Source: Planctomycetota bacterium (GTDB lineage: Bacteria > Planctomycetota > B15-G4). Taken from it: 64,000 bases of DNA. The position numbers and the translations under genes are program-made. The notes beneath the pieces are model-generated. The model was given only the letters and a program-made list of their open reading frames with translations, made no database searches and was not told the DNA's origin. The stretch covers positions 37,449 to 101,448 of the forward strand of contig JACKHP010000010.1 in NCBI GenBank assembly GCA_020638905.1, written 5' to 3'. Of the stretch, positions 25,866 to 38,211 are shown piece after piece; position 1 is the first letter of the stretch; each line of letters begins with the position of its first letter.

Positions 25866-26060
25866 CCCCGGACTCCGGCCCGCGAGAGGCGCCGACGGGC
25901 GGCCCGGGCGGTTGCGGGCGGCGGGGCGGTTGCGGACGGGTCCCGCGGGGCCTGCCCGACGCGGTGGCGGCACCCCCACCGGACCCTCGGACGCCCTGAA
26001 TCCGGCAGCGGCGGCGGCTCCCGGGAACCTCGGGAGGTCCGCGCTCCGTCCCGTCCGCGG

Positions 26061-28982
26061 GTGAATCGTCTTCGGCTCCGGGCCGGGGCCTGCCGAAAGA
26101 ACCGGATCGACCGATCCGCCCGGGTTCCGCGAGGCAGGCCCTTGTCCGACGACGACTTCCAGAAGCCGAGCAACGTCACGCCCAAACTGCTGGGCGCGGC
26201 CATCGCCTTCCTCGGGGGCGTGGTCGCGATCTCGTGGTACCTCAACAAGCTCGAGCTCGTGACCGTCCCGACCCAATGGGTCTCGATGCAGTACAACACC
26301 GCCGTCGGCTTCGTGCTGGTCGGACTCGCGGTGGTGGCCCACTGCGTCGGACGCAAGCGCTTCGCCTTCCTGTGCGGCGCGCTCGCCGCCGGCATCGGCA
26401 GCGTGGCCCTCGCCGAACAACTCCTGGGGCGCGAGCTGCACATCGTCGACGCGCTGTTCCTCGACGGCAGCGGGTCGTTCCAGTTCGACATGGCGCCCAA
26501 CACGGCGCTGTGCTTCGCGGTGGCGGGATGCCTGATCCTCGTCTACCGCGCGCCGCGCTCGCGGCGACGTTGGCGCGAGATGGCGTCGGGCGTCCTGGCC
26601 GCGATGCTCACCGCCGCGGGCTTCGTGGGACTGCTCAACTTCGTCCTCAACGACGGCGTGGAGACGGGCTTCGCGCGCTTCACGCAGATGGAACTGCACA
26701 CCGCGCTGGCGTTCCTCGGACTGGGCGTGGCGTTCTTCGTGATGATCGGCCACTTCGGCACCGACAGCATGCAGCGCAAGCTGCCCGCCTGGTCGCCTTG
26801 GGCCGCGGGACTCGGCGTGGGCGCGCTCGTGCTGGCCGTCTGGCTCGGGCTCACGTCGTCCGACCAGCGCCTGCGGCAGATGTCGACCACCAAGACGCAC
26901 GAGGCGGCCGTCACCCATGCGAACCAGCTGCTCCAGAACCACCTGCACGAGGTCGACAAGCTGGCGCGTCTCGTCGCGCACTCGCTGAACGGCCCGGAGG
27001 CCGACCTGCGCGCCGACGTCGAGGTGTTCACGAGCGGCATGCCGGGACTGGTCGGCATGGCCCACGTCGAGTGCGACGGTTCGATCGGCTACACCACGGA
27101 TGCGGGCCCCGACTGGGCGCGCCAGGTGCTCGCGCTGGCCGACGTCCAGGACGCGCTCGCACGCAGCCGCAGCGAGGGCGGCACGGCGGTGGCCGGACCG
27201 ATCACCACCGGCGACTTCCCGCAGTCGCTGTTCGTGGTCGTCCCGGTCGTCTGGCAGGGCGAACCGCGCGGTGAGCTCGTGTTCCAGGACGCGGTCCAGC
27301 CGTTCTTCGACGCGATCTTCGCCGAAGGCGTCGGGCGCACGTTCGACGTCGAGCTGTTCGACCAGGACAACCGCTCGTTCTACCGCTCCTACGACGTGTA
27401 CTGGGCGCCCACGCGCCACGTCTCGAGCCTGGTCGCGCACACCGAGCGCGCCACCGGCAAGGTCGCGTTCGGCGACCGCATCTGGACCATCCGCGGCGCG
27501 GTCGGCGCTCCCTGGATGCCCGGCGCGCGCAGCGCCGGCAACACGCTCATCCTCTGGATCGGCCTGTTCCTGGCGGTCTCGATCGCCTTCGCGGTGCGCA
27601 AGTCGGAGCTGCTGCGCGAACGGGCGTACTCGCTGGCGGACGCGAACTCGACCATCGAGAAGGGCGTCGTGAACCTGCAGGAGGCCAACGCGCGCCTCGA
27701 CGAACGCCGCCGCGACCTGGAGGCGGCCGAGGAGCGCCTGCGCCGTGCGGTGCGCGAGAAGCGTCGCATCCTCGACTCGCTCTCGGCCTTCCTGGTGGGC
27801 GTCGACGGCGACGGGGTCGTGACCGAGTGGAACTTCAACTCGAGCGAGCTGTTCGGGCTCTCGAGCGGCGCGGCGCTGGGTCGTCCGTTCGAGGATCTCG
27901 AGCTGCCCTGGGACCGCATCGACGTGCTCGACGCGGTGTCCGAGTGCCTCGCATCCGGGCAGCGCATCAAGCGCGACAACTTCACGGTGACGGGCGAGAC
28001 CGAGAACGACTCGCGCGTCGTCAGCTTCACCGTGAATCCAGCCCAGGACGGCGACAGCCGCCGCGGCTTCTCGATCATCGGCGCCGACGTCACCGAGCGC
28101 AACATGCTCGAGATCCAGCTGCACCAGGCCCAGAAACTCGAGTCGGTCGGCACGCTCGCCGCGGGCATCGCGCACGAGATCAACACGCCGATGCAGTTCG
28201 TGAGCGACAACGTGCGCTTCCTGTCGCAGCAGGTCGAGTCGATCACCGACCTGCTCAAGATGCAGGCCGAGCTGCTCGCCCGGCTCGACGAGGCCGGGGT
28301 CGACGACGAGCGCGTGCGCGCCGCACGGCTGCTGGTCGACTCGATGGACGTCGACTTCGTCGCCGACGAGATGCCGCTCGCGATCAACGAGACGCTCGAG
28401 GGCGTCGAGCGCGTCACGACGATCGTGAAGGCCATGAAGGACTTCAGCCACCCCGGCGACCAGTCGGTGGCCGCGTCCGACCTGAACAAGGCCATCGAGA
28501 CGACGCTGCAGGTGGCGCGCAACGAGTACAAGTACATCGTCGACGTGACCACCGACTTCGGCGACCTGCCGATGGTCGAGTGCTGGGTCGGGGACCTGAA
28601 CCAGGTCTTCCTGAACCTGCTCGTGAACGGCACGCACGCCATCCGCGAGAAGCTGGGCGACAACAGCACCGAGAAGGGGACGATCGCCATCAGCACGCGC
28701 GTCGACGGCGAGTGCGTCGAGATCAGGTTCACCGACTCCGGCACGGGCATCCCCGAGGAGGCCCGCGCGCACGTCTTCGAACAGTTCTACACCACCAAGG
28801 AGATCGGTCGCGGGACCGGCCTCGGGCTCGCCATCGCGCGCGCCGTGGTGGTCGACAAGCACGGCGGAGATCTCCGGTTCGAGACCGAGATGGACGTGGG
28901 CACGACCTTCATCGTGCGCGTCCCCGTGCGCCAGAAGCCCGCCGAGGCGACGATCGATGACACGTGTCCTCTTCGTGGATGA
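26061..28982 (+). CDS. sensor histidine kinase with N-terminal 7-TM domain, extracytoplasmic/linker domain, 8th TM, PAS, HisKA and HATPase_c
   Basis: Seven hydrophobic helices in first ~270 aa, TM LILWIGLFLAVSIAFAV, coiled coil, PAS-like segment, H-box GIAHEINTPMQFV, N/G1/G2 boxes (LLVNGTHAI, DSGTGIP, GTGLGLAIAR). Confidence 0.85.
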   Translation: MNRLRLRAGACRKNRIDRSARVPRGRPLSDDDFQKPSNVTPKLLGAAIAFLGGVVAISWYLNKLELVTVPTQWVSMQYNTAVGFVLVGLAVVAHCVGRKRFAFLCGALAAGIGSVALAEQLLGRELHIVDALFLDGSGSFQFDMAPNTALCFAVAGCLILVYRAPRSRRRWREMASGVLAAMLTAAGFVGLLNFVLNDGVETGFARFTQMELHTALAFLGLGVAFFVMIGHFGTDSMQRKLPAWSPWAAGLGVGALVLAVWLGLTSSDQRLRQMSTTKTHEAAVTHANQLLQNHLHEVDKLARLVAHSLNGPEADLRADVEVFTSGMPGLVGMAHVECDGSIGYTTDAGPDWARQVLALADVQDALARSRSEGGTAVAGPITTGDFPQSLFVVVPVVWQGEPRGELVFQDAVQPFFDAIFAEGVGRTFDVELFDQDNRSFYRSYDVYWAPTRHVSSLVAHTERATGKVAFGDRIWTIRGAVGAPWMPGARSAGNTLILWIGLFLAVSIAFAVRKSELLRERAYSLADANSTIEKGVVNLQEANARLDERRRDLEAAEERLRRAVREKRRILDSLSAFLVGVDGDGVVTEWNFNSSELFGLSSGAALGRPFEDLELPWDRIDVLDAVSECLASGQRIKRDNFTVTGETENDSRVVSFTVNPAQDGDSRRGFSIIGADVTERNMLEIQLHQAQKLESVGTLAAGIAHEINTPMQFVSDNVRFLSQQVESITDLLKMQAELLARLDEAGVDDERVRAARLLVDSMDVDFVADEMPLAINETLEGVERVTTIVKAMKDFSHPGDQSVAASDLNKAIETTLQVARNEYKYIVDVTTDFGDLPMVECWVGDLNQVFLNLLVNGTHAIREKLGDNSTEKGTIAISTRVDGECVEIRFTDSGTGIPEEARAHVFEQFYTTKEIGRGTGLGLAIARAVVVDKHGGDLRFETEMDVGTTFIVRVPVRQKPAEATIDDTCPLRG

Positions 28983-30012
28983 CGACACCCGCGTCCTGAG
29001 CGGGTTGCGACGCCAGCTGCACGACCGACGCGAGGCCTGGGAGATGGTCTTCGCGCCGGGCGGGCCCGAGGCGCTCGCGCTGGTCGGCGCCGAGACGTTC
29101 GACGCCGTCGTGACCGACATGAAGATGCCCGTGATCGACGGCGCCAAGGTGCTCGTGCAGGTCGTCGAGCGCCAGCCTTCCGCGTTGCGCATCGTGCTCT
29201 CGGGAGAGGCCGATCCCGAGCGCCGCGTCGACGCCGCGAGCTGCGCCCACCGCTACCTCGTCAAGCCGTGCGCGCCCGAGACGCTCAAGCTCGAGATCGA
29301 GCAGGGACTCGCGATGCGCGCGCGCGTCGAGGCGCTGCAGGACGCGCGTCTCGTCAGCCTGTGGCGGCGTCCGCCGTTCTCGACCGCCGGGGGGCGTGAT
29401 CTCCTCGCGGCGATGCAGTCCGAGGCGACGCAGCTCCCGCAGGGTCTGGCCGAGAGCCTGGACGCCGACGACACGCTCTGGCGCCGGGTGCGCCAGGCGC
29501 TCTCGGCGGCGTGGGTCGACGAGGTCACGCTGCGCTCGACGCCCGACGAGCTGGCGTCGGCGGTGGGCGCGCGCACCGTGCTCGGTACCGCGATGGCCGC
29601 GCGGGTGCTCGAGCTGGTCGACCTCGGCGACGGCGGAGGCTGGACGTCCGCGCTGCCCGTGGCCGTCTCCGCGCGCAAGCTCGCGCGGGAGCACGGTCTG
29701 CCGGGCGATGCGGCCGCCGAGGCCTTCCTGGGAGGCTTGTTGCACGCGGTCTGCGCCGGCGAGTCCCGCGACGACACGTGGGCCGTGCTCGCGTACGTCC
29801 TGCCGTGCTGGGGCTTCCCGCGGCGCGTGGTCGACGCCGCCACGGCCTGCCCCGACGCCTGGGCGACGTGCGGCGAGGGACATCCCCTGGCCGCGGTGCT
29901 GGCGGCGCGGCTGTTGGTGGGTGACTCGCGCGCCCCCGAACTCGTCGCCGCGCTCTCGGAGCTGGGATGGTCCGAGCGCGTCTCGGCCTGGAAGCACATC
30001 GATCGAAACTGA
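28957..30012 (+). CDS. response regulator, receiver domain fused to HDOD domain
   Basis: REC motifs VLFVDDD...DAVVTDMKMP...LVKP; C-terminal ~200 aa HDOD-like; overlaps kinase gene by 26 nt. Confidence 0.75.
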   Translation: MTRVLFVDDDTRVLSGLRRQLHDRREAWEMVFAPGGPEALALVGAETFDAVVTDMKMPVIDGAKVLVQVVERQPSALRIVLSGEADPERRVDAASCAHRYLVKPCAPETLKLEIEQGLAMRARVEALQDARLVSLWRRPPFSTAGGRDLLAAMQSEATQLPQGLAESLDADDTLWRRVRQALSAAWVDEVTLRSTPDELASAVGARTVLGTAMAARVLELVDLGDGGGWTSALPVAVSARKLAREHGLPGDAAAEAFLGGLLHAVCAGESRDDTWAVLAYVLPCWGFPRRVVDAATACPDAWATCGEGHPLAAVLAARLLVGDSRAPELVAALSELGWSERVSAWKHIDRN

Positions 30013-30123
30013 CCGGACGTTCCCGTGCGATCGGACGCAGATGGGCTGGAGTCGCCCCCGCGGACGGTCGATAGAGCAGGGTCACCGGGGCCGGACGCGC
30101 CCCGAGCCCGGAGGAGGCAAGCG

Positions 30124-30792
30124 ATGCGGCACAAGCTCCTGATCGTCGACGACGAGCCCATGATCTACCACGCGCTGCGTCGTGGTCTGCACCGCGAGGC
30201 AGAGTGGGAGACCATGTACGCCGCTGGCGCGGAGGCCGCGCTCGAGATCCTCGAGACCGAGGCGATCGACATCGTGATCTGCGACGAGAACATGCCGGGC
30301 ATGAACGGCAGCCAGCTGCTCGGACTCGTGCGCCAGCGTTGGCCCGACGTGATCAGGATGATGCTCACCGGCGACGCGCGCGTCGACGTGGTCATGAAGG
30401 CCATCAACAACGGCGAGATCTACCGCTTCTTCACCAAGCCGTGCAACGAGGCCGAGCTGATCGTGGCCCTGCGCGACGCGCTGCAGATGAAGAAGCTGAA
30501 GTCCGAGAGCCGGCGCCTGCTCGACATGGTCAAGAGCCAGGCCGCCCGCATCCGCATGCTCGAGGGCAAGGGCGGACCGCTGACCGACACGCAGGACGCG
30601 GTCCCCGCGGCGCCCGTCGCCGTGGGGCAGCGCAGCATGTCGCTGGACGAGATCACCGGCCGCGCCCCGTCCCCGGGGGCAGAACCGGCGCCGGCGCGCG
30701 GAAACGGCGTGATCGACCTGAACGGCGGCGTCGACGACGTCGACTCGCTGCTCGACGAGATCCGCTCCGAGCTGGACAACATCGCCCGCTGA
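30124..30792 (+). CDS. single-domain response regulator (REC) with low-complexity C-terminal tail
   Basis: ATG with GGAGGAGG SD upstream; LLIVDDE...DIVICDENMPGMNG...FFTKP receiver signature. Confidence 0.8.
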   Translation: MRHKLLIVDDEPMIYHALRRGLHREAEWETMYAAGAEAALEILETEAIDIVICDENMPGMNGSQLLGLVRQRWPDVIRMMLTGDARVDVVMKAINNGEIYRFFTKPCNEAELIVALRDALQMKKLKSESRRLLDMVKSQAARIRMLEGKGGPLTDTQDAVPAAPVAVGQRSMSLDEITGRAPSPGAEPAPARGNGVIDLNGGVDDVDSLLDEIRSELDNIAR

Positions 30793-30890: not shown

Positions 30891-31937
30891 ATGCCGCACG
30901 CAGAGCACGTTCCGCGCGTCCCGGCGACGTGCGTCCTGTTCGTGCTGGCGGCGCTCGCGCTGTTCGGCGGCGCGCCGTCCGCGCGGGCCGGCGAGACCGG
31001 TCCCGTGCTGGTCGTCACGCCGGAGCACCTGCACCTCGGCGAGGTGTACTGGGGCTCCAGCGGACGCGGCGAGATCGTGCTCGAGAACGCGGGCGACGAG
31101 ACGCTCGTGATCGACCAGATCAGGAGCAGCTGCGGTTGCACGGTGGCCCCGCTGGCCGAGGACAGCCGGCGCCTCGAGCCGGGCGCGAAGGTGACCGTCC
31201 CGGTGATCATGACGCCCAAGGGCCCGGCCACGCCGCTGCACAAGACCCTGCACGTGGTCAGCAACGACCACCGGCACCCGGACGTCCCGGTCGAGGTCGA
31301 GTGCGACGTCAAGGTCGGCGTCGAGACGGTGCCCGGATACGTGCTGTTCCGCGACCTCGAGCTGGGCCAGGTGGCCGAGACGGACCTGAAGGTCGTCTCG
31401 CGCGACGGCGAGCCGTTCGCGATCGTCTCGGCGACCGTCAACGGCGACCTGTACGCGTTGACCTTCGAGACGGGGACCGAGGCGCTCGAGCACGTGATCC
31501 ACGTCCGGGCGGGGCCCATCGAGCGGCGCATCAACCCGTCCTGCCTGTTGACCGTGACGACCACGCACTCGCGCACGCCGACGCTCACGATCAACTGCAA
31601 CTCGATGACCGCGCCGGCACTCGTGACCGACCCGCGCTACCTGCTGCTGGGCGACGTCCCGGCCGGCGGCGAGCGCGAGATCACGGTCGAGGTGCGGCGT
31701 CCGCACGACCCGACGCCGTTCGAGTCGCTCGAGATCGTGCCCTTCAACATGCCCGAGCTGGTCGTCCGCACCCGACGCGACGAGGCGAACCCGCTGCTCT
31801 GGCACGTGGCCGTGACCGCGCCGACCGCACGCGCGGGCCAGAACCTGAACACCCCCGTGCGCCTCGTCACCGAGCTGGGCGAGGATGCCGCACTGACCAT
31901 GCTGCTCGGACTGCGCGTGACCCCGGAGAAGCCGTGA
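30891..31937 (+). CDS. DUF1573 domain-containing secreted protein (tandem Ig-like domains)
   Basis: Signal peptide, GEVYWGSSGRGEIVLENAGDETLVIDQIRSSCGCT DUF1573 signature, second similar domain. Confidence 0.7.
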   Translation: MPHAEHVPRVPATCVLFVLAALALFGGAPSARAGETGPVLVVTPEHLHLGEVYWGSSGRGEIVLENAGDETLVIDQIRSSCGCTVAPLAEDSRRLEPGAKVTVPVIMTPKGPATPLHKTLHVVSNDHRHPDVPVEVECDVKVGVETVPGYVLFRDLELGQVAETDLKVVSRDGEPFAIVSATVNGDLYALTFETGTEALEHVIHVRAGPIERRINPSCLLTVTTTHSRTPTLTINCNSMTAPALVTDPRYLLLGDVPAGGEREITVEVRRPHDPTPFESLEIVPFNMPELVVRTRRDEANPLLWHVAVTAPTARAGQNLNTPVRLVTELGEDAALTMLLGLRVTPEKP

Positions 31938-32431
31938 TGAGTGGGAAGTCCCTTGCCGTGATCGGATCCGTGCTGCTCGTCGCGGTGGCGTGCTCGTCCC
32001 CGGGTGCGGCGACCCCCGCGCCGGACGCCGCCGACGCGCCCGTCGCGGACGGCGCTGCGTCCGACGCCCCGGCCACGGCCGAGGCCGAGAGCGTGACCAA
32101 GGGCTGGCGCGAGAAGACCGTCGAGGGACTGATCGTGCGCTGGCGTCCGCTGCCCGACCCGATCCCTCTCAACAAGCTCTTCAACCTCGACATCGAGCTC
32201 GCGAACCCCACCGGCGGCCCGGTCGACGGGGTCACGCAGATGCGCGTCGACGCCAAGATGCCGGCCCACGGTCACGGCATGACGCGTCAGGCCCAGACCA
32301 TCATGGACGGCAGCGAACGCGCCCACGCGGTGGGCCTGCTGTTCCACATGGTGGGCGAGTGGGAGGTCTCGGTCGACGTGTACCGCGACCAGCACTGGAT
32401 CTCCGCCAAGTGGACCGAGACCCTCGAGTGA
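31937..32431 (+). CDS. lipoprotein with Met/His-rich motif (possible metal-binding, YtkA/FixH-like)
   Basis: ATGA-coupled to DUF1573 gene; lipobox LLVAVAC; motif AKMPAHGHGMTRQAQTIM. Confidence 0.5.
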   Translation: MSGKSLAVIGSVLLVAVACSSPGAATPAPDAADAPVADGAASDAPATAEAESVTKGWREKTVEGLIVRWRPLPDPIPLNKLFNLDIELANPTGGPVDGVTQMRVDAKMPAHGHGMTRQAQTIMDGSERAHAVGLLFHMVGEWEVSVDVYRDQHWISAKWTETLE

Positions 32432-32433
32432 GC

Positions 32434-34764
32434 ATGGCGGACGGCGCGCGCGACGGGCGCGCGCCGTCGTCCCGTGACCGGGGGGCGCGCGTCCCCCGGA
32501 GCGGGAGCGCCGCTGGCCTCGCCGTCGCGGGACTGGTCGCGCTCGCGCTGCTTTCGCCGAACGCCTGCCGCGCCCCGCTCGACGGTGCCGCGTCCGACCT
32601 GGCGCAGGCGCCCGACGCCGACACGTCGGCGCGCGGCGCCGTCGAGGCTCGGGCGGCCGGGCCGCCGTGGGTCGTGGCGCTCACGCCACTCGAGCGCAAG
32701 CGCATCCTGCGCATGTCCCCGCTCGGGGATCCGCCGCCCGACCCCACGAACGCGGTGGCCGACGACCCGCGGGCGGCGCGTCTCGGGCAGGCGCTGTTCT
32801 TCGACCCGCGGCTGTCCGACGACGGCTCGGTGGCGTGCGTGAGCTGCCACGATCCGCAGAAGGGCTGGGCCGACGGACGCCGCCTCGCGCGCGGACTGGC
32901 CGACGCGTCCTTCCACGCCCCCACGCTGTGGAACGCGGCGTACCAGCGCTGGTACTTCTGGGACGGTCGGGCCGACTCGCTCTGGGCGCAGGCCCTCGGC
33001 CCGCTCGAGAACCCCAAGGAGCACGGCGCCGACCGCTCCCTCGTGGCGCACGTCCTGCACGACGACCCGCGCCTCGCGGCGGCGTACGAGGAGGTCTTCG
33101 GCGCGCTGCCCGAACTCGACGACGCGGCGCGCTTCCCGGCGCGCGCCCGTCCGGTGCCGGGCGAGCCGTCGAATCCGCAGCAGCTCGCGTGGGACGCGAT
33201 GCATCCCAGCGACCGCGACGACGTGAACCGCGTGTTCGCCAACGTGGGCAAGTCGCTCGAGGCCTTCGAGCGCCGGATCGTCTCGAGGCACGCACCGATC
33301 GACACGTTCGTCGAGGGACTGCGCACGGGCGACGCGTCCGAGCTGGCCGCGCTCGACGAGTCGGCCGTACGCGGCGCGCAGCTCTTCGTGGGACGCGGCA
33401 ACTGCCACGTGTGCCACGGCGGCGCGACGTTCTCCGACCTCGAGTTCCACGACATCCGGCTGCCGCTGGCGGGAGCACCGTCGGTGGGCGACCCGGGACG
33501 ACTGGGCGCGTACCGCAAGCTGCGCGGCGACCCGTTCGCCGGCGGCGGGGCGTACAGCGACGATCCCGAGACCGGCGACGACAAGGTGGCGCGCCTGCTT
33601 CCGTCGGAGGAGGCCTACGGCGCCTTCAAGACGCCTTCGCTGCGCAACGTGGCGGCCACCGCGCCGTACATGCACCGGGGCCACTTCGCCACGCTCGACG
33701 ACGTGCTCGACCACTACTCGACCCTGGCCCGCGGCGGCACGCCCGTCGGACACCACACCGAGCCGCGCAGGAGCGAGAGCATCCTCGTGCCGTTGCACCT
33801 CACGGCGCAGGAGCACGACGATCTGCGAGCGTTCCTCGAGTCGCTCACCGACACGGCCATCGACCCGGCGCTCACCCGTCCGCCGGCCGGACTGGAACCC
33901 CCGCCGCCGCGTCCGCGCTCACGGGCGCTCGACGACTTCCGCGCGATCTCGGCCGACGCGCTCGAGTCGCATCCGCTCGAGGAGCTGGCCGGGCTCGACC
34001 GCGTGCGCGGCTGGCGCCTGCGCGAGGACCTCGTGCGCGCCCTGGCCGATCCGGAGTCGACGCGCTTCAAGGAGCCGTTGTTCCTGCCGGGCGTCGAGGC
34101 GTTGCTGCCGCGCGAGGCCGCCGAGCTCGCGCGCTACGACGGTGGACGCCTGTTCCTGCGCGACCTGCGTGCGCTCGACCTCGAGACCGCGCGACAGCTC
34201 GTCGGATTCCGTCCAGGGGGCGAACTGTTCCTCGACGGACTCGCGACGCTCGACCTCGATGTCGCCCGCGTGCTCGCCGCGTGGAAGGGCGACCGGCTCT
34301 CGCTCGGCGGACTGACGTCGCTGTCGCCCGACCTGGCGCAGGTGCTGGCGGTCTTCGGCGGCGGACTCGAGCTCGACGGTGTGCGTGGGCTCGACGACGA
34401 GACCGCGCGCGCCCTGTCCGCGTGGCGCTCGCCCGGGCCCGGACGCATGCTCTCGCTCGACGGCGTGCGCGGGCTCGCGCCGGAGGTCGTGGCGACGCTC
34501 GCGGCCGTCGACGGCTGGGGGCTCAGCCTGGGCGGGCTCGAGACCCTCGACGCGCCGCTGGCCGAGGCGCTGCGGGGCGCGCACGTCACGCTGCTGCGCC
34601 TCGACGGCGTGCGCTCGCTGTCGTCCGACGCGGTCGAGCCCATGACGCACTGGACGGCGCGCTTCGTCGAGCTGCGCGCGCTGCGCGAGGCCGACGCCGA
34701 CACGCGCGCCCGGCTCGAGGCCGCGCCGCCCGTCTTCAGCCTCGATCCGCCGCCGGGCGCCTGA
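32434..34764 (+). CDS. di-heme cytochrome c peroxidase (CCP/MauG family) with C-terminal LRR-like repeat domain
   Basis: Two CxxCH motifs (CVSCHD, CHVCHG), conserved CCP segments (FFDPRLS, AFKTPSLRNVAATAPYMHRGHFATL); C-terminal ~210 aa of ~7 LxLxGLxxL..A..LA repeats. Confidence 0.8.
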   Translation: MADGARDGRAPSSRDRGARVPRSGSAAGLAVAGLVALALLSPNACRAPLDGAASDLAQAPDADTSARGAVEARAAGPPWVVALTPLERKRILRMSPLGDPPPDPTNAVADDPRAARLGQALFFDPRLSDDGSVACVSCHDPQKGWADGRRLARGLADASFHAPTLWNAAYQRWYFWDGRADSLWAQALGPLENPKEHGADRSLVAHVLHDDPRLAAAYEEVFGALPELDDAARFPARARPVPGEPSNPQQLAWDAMHPSDRDDVNRVFANVGKSLEAFERRIVSRHAPIDTFVEGLRTGDASELAALDESAVRGAQLFVGRGNCHVCHGGATFSDLEFHDIRLPLAGAPSVGDPGRLGAYRKLRGDPFAGGGAYSDDPETGDDKVARLLPSEEAYGAFKTPSLRNVAATAPYMHRGHFATLDDVLDHYSTLARGGTPVGHHTEPRRSESILVPLHLTAQEHDDLRAFLESLTDTAIDPALTRPPAGLEPPPPRPRSRALDDFRAISADALESHPLEELAGLDRVRGWRLREDLVRALADPESTRFKEPLFLPGVEALLPREAAELARYDGGRLFLRDLRALDLETARQLVGFRPGGELFLDGLATLDLDVARVLAAWKGDRLSLGGLTSLSPDLAQVLAVFGGGLELDGVRGLDDETARALSAWRSPGPGRMLSLDGVRGLAPEVVATLAAVDGWGLSLGGLETLDAPLAEALRGAHVTLLRLDGVRSLSSDAVEPMTHWTARFVELRALREADADTRARLEAAPPVFSLDPPPGA

Positions 34765-34785: not shown

Positions 34786-38049
<3,264 letters not shown>

Positions 38050-38211
38050 GGTGGTGCTCCTTCGGGCGGGCGTCGCGCGCGCCCGTGGACGACGCGTGCA
38101 GGCAAATCCGGGACACCATACTCGATCGGCGCCACCGCGCCGCATGTCGGACGGGGTCGCGAGCCGGGTCCGGCGCCCGTCGAAGAGCCTGGCGCCCTCC
38201 GCCCGGCAGGG

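Follow-up and report, generated by a model that had tools for sequence, protein, structure and literature searches.

Why should a di-heme enzyme of the cytochrome c peroxidase (CCP)/MauG type carry a long C-terminal tail of repeats, and is that tail real? The question is raised by a single gene in the window analyzed here, a 64,000-nucleotide stretch of planctomycete DNA. An earlier note, written from the letters of the window alone, had proposed that about seven repeats resembling leucine-rich repeats (LRRs) follow the peroxidase core, that such a fusion is unusual and that it marks a targeted, partner-modifying peroxidase rather than a scavenger.

The gene and its relatives

The gene is complete. 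It occupies positions 32434–34764 (stop codon included) of the forward strand, the strand of all the enzyme features given below, as a single open reading frame that begins with the ATG at 32434 and encodes a protein of 776 residues. The G+C content of the window is ~72%, and third-codon-position G+C (GC3) is 0.85–0.99 in one frame from ~32500 to 34750, the whole length of the gene; the two genes upstream of it lie in other reading frames. As that one frame has high GC3 throughout and the window sequence contains no N bases, the peroxidase core and the tail are translated as one continuous frame. The protein begins with a putative signal peptide (32434–32568), read from the sequence, that ends in the lipobox-like LLSPNAC (Cys45). 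Given this terminal cysteine and the canonical lipoboxes found at the same place in homologues (LAGGC in P0013, LLGAC in P0052 and LAAGC in P0056), the enzyme is probably a lipoprotein that faces the periplasm and is anchored via Cys45.

Among the 120 closest whole-protein homologues, 110 are 426–490 residues long, and a hidden Markov model (HMM) of the tail was positive in two, P0013 and P0014. P0013 (762 residues, locus tag H6825_08075) is 55% identical to the window enzyme, and P0014 is the product of a 5′-truncated gene on a JGI metagenome contig. The three tails align nearly without gaps at 41–47% identity, with equal numbers of units and a conserved linker. P0013 is most likely a paralogue encoded on a different contig of the window's own genome, as the two share the locus-tag prefix H6825; the lipoprotein encoded upstream of the window enzyme is identical, from its GTG start, to P0282 (H6825_08850) of a Planctomycetes metagenome-assembled genome (MAG). 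The fusion is genuine and conserved but rare, the order of core, linker, cap and LRR being present in three proteins here, and the earlier view that an LRR is an unusual addition to a di-heme peroxidase was borne out by the short homologues and the two tail-positive ones. Exact-sequence look-ups of P0013, P0282 and the window enzyme found no contigs. A scan of genome contigs with P0013 gave 16 loci from species-representative genomes (neither P0013's own contig nor the window's genome among them), which matched over the core only, none of the 16 having a tail, and scans of genome contigs and metagenome contigs with the tail alignment (A1) gave no confirmed relatives. P0017, encoded by a gene of 448 residues that is complete on its contig, lacks the tail at 59% identity; with tail-less proteins no more distant in sequence than the tailed ones, the tail would be dispensable for the core reaction.

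These data bear on the possibility that the tail arose as an artefact, with a separate LRR gene joined by frameshift or misassembly to a normal peroxidase gene of ~440 residues; a frameshifted fusion had been named by the earlier note as fatal to its proposal. Such a join would fit the absence of the 776-residue product from the protein collection, in which the product of the neighboring gene was present, and an independent Logan contig of the locus that stops just before the enzyme gene and does not span the junction; however, no stop codon or change of frame was found, GC3 stays high in the single frame across the junction, and the same architecture recurs with near gap-free tails in P0013, encoded on a second contig of the MAG, and in the metagenomic P0014. 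We consider the artefact essentially refuted and give it hardly any credence.

The di-heme core and the lipoprotein encoded upstream

The core (residues ~95–480; 32716–33873) was matched by the Pfam model CCP_MauG (PF03150) with 134.4 bits, versus a cutoff of 25.6, and this match together with two CxxCH heme-binding motifs, CVSCH (residues 135–139; 32836–32850) and CHVCH (residues 324–328; 33403–33417), places the enzyme in the bCcP/MauG superfamily. The best match of the core among PDB sequences was MbnH (6e1c, E = 2.3e-28); bacterial peroxidases and MauG came next. Models of the individual families gave partial matches that fell far below their cutoffs, the MauG model (TIGR03791) scoring 162.3 bits versus an equivalog cutoff of 443.85 and the MbnH model (TIGR04039) 149.8 bits versus 362.85, and the enzyme is assigned neither to the MauG equivalog nor to the MbnH family. 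No methylamine dehydrogenase genes were found near the enzyme gene, its neighbors being a DUF1573 gene, a YtkA-like gene, response regulators and carB.

When aligned with bacterial peroxidases and MbnH, the enzyme has Trp176 (32959–32961), within FWDGRA, at the position of the inter-heme tryptophan (MauG Trp93), a residue whose role has been described (PMC6405878). Tyr428 (33715–33717), counted along the alignment, falls in the column of MauG Tyr294 and of the tyrosine of the MbnH segment …VIDIYSEG…, and is the predicted axial ligand of the six-coordinate heme; in the bacterial peroxidase 3o5c this column holds the methionine of …AVNTMAD…. Tyr–His ligation sets MauG and BthA, which form bis-Fe(IV) species, apart from the scavenging peroxidases, which have Met–His ligation (PMC6405878). 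MauG carries out long-range oxidation of its partner protein through the bis-Fe(IV) state (PMC6405878), and MbnH, which displays the same bis-Fe(IV) signature in the near infrared, turns a tryptophan of MbnP into kynurenine (PMC11951088). Judged from these alignments, the window enzyme falls in the MauG-like class capable of forming bis-Fe(IV) (MauG, MbnH and BthA), with Tyr–His ligation predicted and Tyr428 at the position where a canonical scavenger has the methionine of its high-potential heme. The proposal that the enzyme is MauG-like and not a scavenger is supported by this predicted ligand, but not by the tail from which it had been derived: a tyrosine was present at the Tyr428 offset in 115 of 115 PYMH motifs of homologues, and hence the MauG-like reading applies to the whole clade, irrespective of the tail.

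The stop codon of the preceding gene (31937–32431, forward strand) lies 2 nt before the enzyme ATG. This gene encodes a lipoprotein of 164 residues, a CrdA/YtkA-like β-sandwich having an invariant MPxHGHGM…HMxGxW. Its match to the Pfam YtkA model (PF13115) is below threshold (14.1 bits versus a cutoff of 25.9), the homologous N-terminal domain of P0052 has a precomputed PF13115 match, and no match was found among the NCBIfam models or among PDB sequences, the MbnP chains included. A homologue of the lipoprotein was encoded directly upstream of the enzyme at 12 of the 13 Planctomycetota and Verrucomicrobiota loci examined and was absent from that place in the Myxococcota loci and the one Proteobacteria locus examined. 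Phycisphaerae RAS1 has a homologue (40% identity) 3 nt upstream of a short enzyme, and in P0052 and P0056 the lipoprotein domain is fused to the N-terminus of the enzyme. From the conserved adjacency, the N-terminal fusions and the analogy with MbnP/MbnH, we infer that the lipoprotein is a putative periplasmic metal-binding protein, the metal probably being copper, that is paired one-to-one with the di-heme enzyme and upon which the enzyme would act. The pairing and occasional fusion of this enzyme clade with a CrdA-like His/Met lipoprotein point to a widespread uncharacterized periplasmic metal-handling module in Planctomycetota and Verrucomicrobiota; a search of the literature for a CCP–YtkA link gave nothing specific.

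The DUF1573 gene (30891–31937), which overlaps the start of the lipoprotein gene by one base, was considered as the source of the LRR ligand and rejected. At the related locus L019 the same response regulator gene directly precedes the lipoprotein gene with no DUF1573 gene between them, and the gene is absent from the other loci; hence, it does not belong to the conserved module.

The repeat domain and its occurrence elsewhere

The core is connected to the tail by a proline-rich linker (…TRPPAGLEPPPPRPRSRA…; 33871–33924), read from the sequence, which is conserved in P0013 and P0014 and forms a first block of low pLDDT in the AlphaFold2 model described below. A flexible proline-rich linker fits a tethered arm. 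The linker is followed by a helical cap at the N-terminal end of the LRRs (residues 499–538; 33928–34047), seen as AlphaFold2 helices at tail residues 10–23, 26–30 and 38–49, and then by nine LRR units of ~24 residues plus a closing β-strand (34075–34740). The units have the form LxLxG[LV]xxLxxxxAxxLAxxxxxx or, in fuller detail, LxLxG[LV]xxL(S/D)x(E/D)xAxxLAxxxxxx. In the model the first leucine of the LxL of successive units is residue 549, 573, 598, 622, 645, 673, 697, 721 and 745, the units being 24, 25, 24, 23, 28, 24, 24, 24 and 23 residues long, and the terminal strand after the ninth unit is in VFSLD (residues 767–769).

A BLOSUM62 self-correlation of residues 546–760 gave only one strong peak, at a lag of 24 (z = 6.05, 500 shuffles), with a secondary peak, its echo, at a lag of 48 (z = 3.6). 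The peptide repeats quoted in the earlier note are all present and the ~24-residue periodicity claimed there is confirmed, although its count of about seven gives way to the nine strand–helix units of the model, and the span it had assigned to the repeats, 34141–34680, covers units 2–8 and part of unit 9 of the full array. Recurrence of a motif at the DNA level also held, at three sites a few bases from the positions quoted: CTCGACGGYGTGCGYGGGCTC is exact at 34372 and 34456 and has three mismatches at 34600, the chance expectation being 0.17 matches, and at least three matches were obtained in none of 100 shuffles. TRF detected no tandem array in the DNA of the tail, and for this reason we judge the repeats to be old and diverged and visible mainly at the protein level.

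AlphaFold2, run on residues 490–776 with an input alignment (A2) of 11 sequences, gave a tail model of mean pLDDT 90.4 and pTM 0.88, in which ten strands of three residues alternate with helices of 7–9 residues. A Foldseek search of this model against the PDB returned LRR proteins only (Nogo receptor, SDS22, internalins, NLRC4 and Skp2), and an HMM of the tail matched 24-residue LRRs among PDB sequences with E values down to 6.5e-14. The strand–helix units and the exclusively LRR matches uphold the earlier reading of the repeats as an LRR solenoid. As modeled, the tail is a genuine LRR domain, placed in the LRR superfamily by its tandem units and its predicted parallel-sheet solenoid. Pfam gave no match to the tail at E ≤ 1 or E ≤ 10, and no LRR model, and searches of the tail alone with Pfam plus NCBIfam gave nothing useful. 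For 43 repeat-rich proteins no LRR family was present among the 25 listed of 37 Pfam families, and the sole Pfam LRR trace among the relatives of the tail was a sub-threshold LRR_8 match on P0002.

The phylum Planctomycetota is known for promiscuous repeat modules. A word-indexed protein search with the tail alone found 12 proteins, all having signal peptides or transmembrane segments and all made of the same repeat, in which Pfam detected no domains. An exhaustive profile search with the tail gave 5,908 representative clusters at E ≤ 1e-3, of which 1,708 remained at E ≤ 1e-30; most are long proteins with multiple repeats, many having 500–1,900 residues. In 43 of the best profile matches the domains found beside the repeats were Pkinase (9), Peptidase_M56 of the BlaR1 type (2), FGE-sulfatase, the planctomycete-associated PSCyt3/PSD2 and Sigma70_r2 (sigma-70 region 2), and the source name of the family members looked up was "hypothetical protein". 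Within the window the di-heme enzyme gene is the only carrier of the repeat. With its thousands of clusters the repeat is an abundant LRR variant, a module that is promiscuous and poorly annotated; current Pfam models miss it, which matters for the annotation of planctomycete proteomes.

Possible roles of the tail and comparison with known systems

LRR solenoids hold their ligands, usually proteins, on the concave face. The ELFLDG and RLSLGG strands are among the invariant parts of that face in the tails. Across the three tails there is no variation at 12 of the 27 positions on the concave face (0, 2 and 4, counted from LxL) and at 3 of the 72 exposed convex positions, which would be the pattern expected of a conserved binding surface, with the reservations that it comes from three sequences and that position 4 (Asp/Gly) may be structural. 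On balance we lean toward the view that the protein is a membrane-anchored periplasmic MauG/MbnH-type enzyme whose LRR solenoid is a putative tethered protein-binding arm. Enzymes of this type, in which the second heme is ligated by His and Tyr, are known to oxidize residues of a partner protein with H2O2, and the window enzyme would do likewise, unlike a Met/His peroxidase that only scavenges peroxide. The proline-rich linker and helical cap would join the nine-unit solenoid of 24-residue GALA/CC-like LRRs to the enzyme C-terminus, and a specific protein would be bound on the conserved concave face, beside the oxidizing heme pair. Candidates for the protein held are a substrate, the CrdA-like lipoprotein encoded next to the enzyme, which would bind metal, and a scaffold in the envelope. 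That the enzyme modifies a partner is a plausible functional interpretation, for which the core tyrosine ligand and the gene of the partner carry more weight than the LRR does.

To our knowledge, the MauG-type enzymes with known substrates are few (MauG and MbnH), and in both the partner is recognized by the core. A modular protein-recognition domain on such an enzyme would ease target finding, as the isolated LRR could be used as bait, and a separate recognition domain would show that the gain of a domain can redirect long-range heme oxidants to other targets.

Given that the repeats are fused to many unrelated domains, they could instead be a generic localization or scaffolding module and not one specific for a substrate. 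The tail would then dock the enzyme onto an envelope structure or periplasmic complex, as the same module may do for planctomycete kinases, proteases and anti-sigma-like proteins. The size of the family (5,908 clusters, 1,708 of them at the stringent threshold) and the variety of its neighboring domains fit a promiscuous general-purpose module, and nearly all members of the enzyme clade work without the tail. However, the enzyme has its own lipoprotein-type anchor, which makes a second localization device less needed, and conservation of the concave face between the paralogues and the homologue suggests a defined ligand, although that ligand could be a scaffold protein. We regard such docking as possible, but on the doubtful side.

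The protein-binding arm that we favor has a narrower form, a sub-case and not an independent explanation, in which the tail docks the co-encoded CrdA/YtkA-like lipoprotein as a non-covalent stand-in for the N-terminal fusion of other lineages. The gene pair is conserved and is fused in P0052 and P0056, and the lipoproteins closest to that of the window, P0283 and P0284, share with it conserved segments that are missing from more distant lipoproteins, WRE…RWRP…PDPIPLN in the N-terminal part and a C-terminus rich in W. Most members, however, pair with the lipoprotein having neither the fusion nor the LRR, and we think it quite improbable that this is what the tail does. The protein-binding arm might also be part of a hitherto undescribed protein-maturation system parallel to MbnH/MbnP, in which the enzyme would modify the His/Met lipoprotein by oxidation, for instance at the tryptophan that is invariant in HMxGxW, and so create or tune a copper site, with the LRR arm docking the substrate or a third protein. 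This full scheme is unlikely. Were it true, the enzyme would be the first di-heme oxidant of proteins to be guided by an LRR domain dedicated to recognition, and the two paralogues with LRR tails that share a genome might differ in their targets.

MbnH (PDB 6E1C) resembles the window enzyme in being the best core match, in having tyrosine at the ligand position of the six-coordinate heme and in having the inter-heme tryptophan. The gene of each lies beside one for a small protein of the periplasm, with predicted metal binding here and the copper-binding MbnP there (PMC11951088). However, MbnH has no LRR tail, and the window partner is a CrdA/YtkA-like β-sandwich with MPxHGHGM and no MbnP match, whereas MbnP has a WxW motif; neither a TonB-dependent transporter nor mbn genes were seen among the neighbors examined. 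MauG of tryptophan tryptophylquinone biosynthesis (PDB 3L4M) shares the superfamily, the tyrosine (Tyr294, equivalent to Tyr428) and a tryptophan at the Trp93 position, but preMADH is recognized by the MauG core and MauG has no appended binding domain. The lipoprotein is only 19% identical to the Helicobacter pylori CrdA/CopC-family copper proteins, and its motif is of the His/Met type (MPxHGHGM plus HMxGxW), whereas CrdA has no histidine, belongs to an efflux system and is not paired with a di-heme enzyme.

The tail itself agrees with the GALA/CC-LRR proteins (Legionella LegL1, 4XA9; Ralstonia RipG4, 9J7J; FBXL2 and Skp2 were those compared) in unit length, convex helix and closest structures. 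In the consensus of that class a unit has 24–26 residues and a convex α-helix, the ladder residue at position 3 is Cys/Asn/Thr, and positions 5–7 hold the motif I/V-g/t-d (PMC2244805). In contrast, the ladder position is Leu or Val in 9 of 9 window units, and in place of the GALA Igd/Vtd/ITD these have L-S/D-x-E/D, in which the apolar residue comes one position further along. The window protein also lacks an F-box, and its LRR domain would be periplasmic and not part of a secreted effector. As 24-residue GALA and GALA-like LRRs have already been reported in the planctomycetes Gemmata and Rhodopirellula (PMC2244805), the repeat class is not new for Planctomycetota; a literature search on GALA-type LRRs in Planctomycetes found nothing specific beyond Kajava 2008. 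The joining of a MauG/MbnH-type di-heme enzyme to GALA-like LRRs is a new domain combination made from known parts and not a new kind of system.

Probable LRR-tailed paralogues and the enzyme gene's product in a protein collection

The only full-length LRR-tailed homologue of the window enzyme that we found was P0013 (H6825_08075), a 762-aa protein with 55% identity to it. The H6825 locus-tag prefix of P0013 is also that of P0282 (H6825_08850), a protein identical to the product of window 31958-32431, and the window appears to derive from a Planctomycetes MAG bearing this prefix. Two divergent paralogues with LRR tails, encoded on different contigs, therefore seem to be present in one genome. 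No exact or near-identical match to the 776-aa product of window 32434-34764 was found in a collection of 15 billion proteins, whereas the product of the adjacent gene was present in that same collection. One possibility is that the source record either leaves the enzyme gene uncalled or lists it as a pseudogene.

Repeat family and duplicated di-heme cores

By use of a profile search we found that the 24-residue repeat of the tail, LxLxGLxxLSxExAxxLAxxxGx, defines a family that comprises no fewer than 5,900 clusters at 50% identity (P0133-P0281 among them), in which fusion to Ser/Thr kinase domains is frequent. A Pfam scan gave no match of any Pfam LRR model to the repeat, which could be proposed as a new curated family. 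In some homologues of about 800 aa (P0015, P0016, P0019, P0050 and P0085), the whole di-heme core is tandemly duplicated to give four CxxCH motifs per polypeptide. Two back-to-back core matches were also found in a Kofleriaceae locus (L015, 8001-10672).

Gene neighborhood and the lipoprotein partner

Just upstream, on the forward strand, lie genes encoding a PAS histidine kinase (1038 aa), a REC-HDOD-like regulator and a REC-only regulator (25866-30792). As the C-terminal sequence of this last regulator (…DDVDSLLDEIR.ELDNI.R) recurs in the related locus L019 (1-183), directly upstream of the lipoprotein-enzyme pair, there is a hint of conserved linkage between the pair and a two-component system. 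These genes are followed by a forward-strand gene (30891-31937) that encodes a 348-aa DUF1573/ASH Ig-like protein with an SSCGCT motif, the stop codon of which overlaps the ATG of the lipoprotein gene by 1 base. Its absence from the equivalent place in L019 suggests that the DUF1573 gene was inserted into the operon in a lineage-specific manner. Downstream, a carbamoyl-phosphate synthase large-subunit-like gene (34786-38145, reverse strand), recognized by eye from its translation, is convergent with the enzyme gene, and 21 bp separate the two stop codons.

The window lipoprotein (31937-32431) lacks the His-rich stretches that its closest homologues, P0283 and P0284, carry immediately after the lipobox cysteine (e.g., DDEHAGHAAHDHAAHDHAGHAG). 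Such stretches are typical of periplasmic metal-binding proteins.
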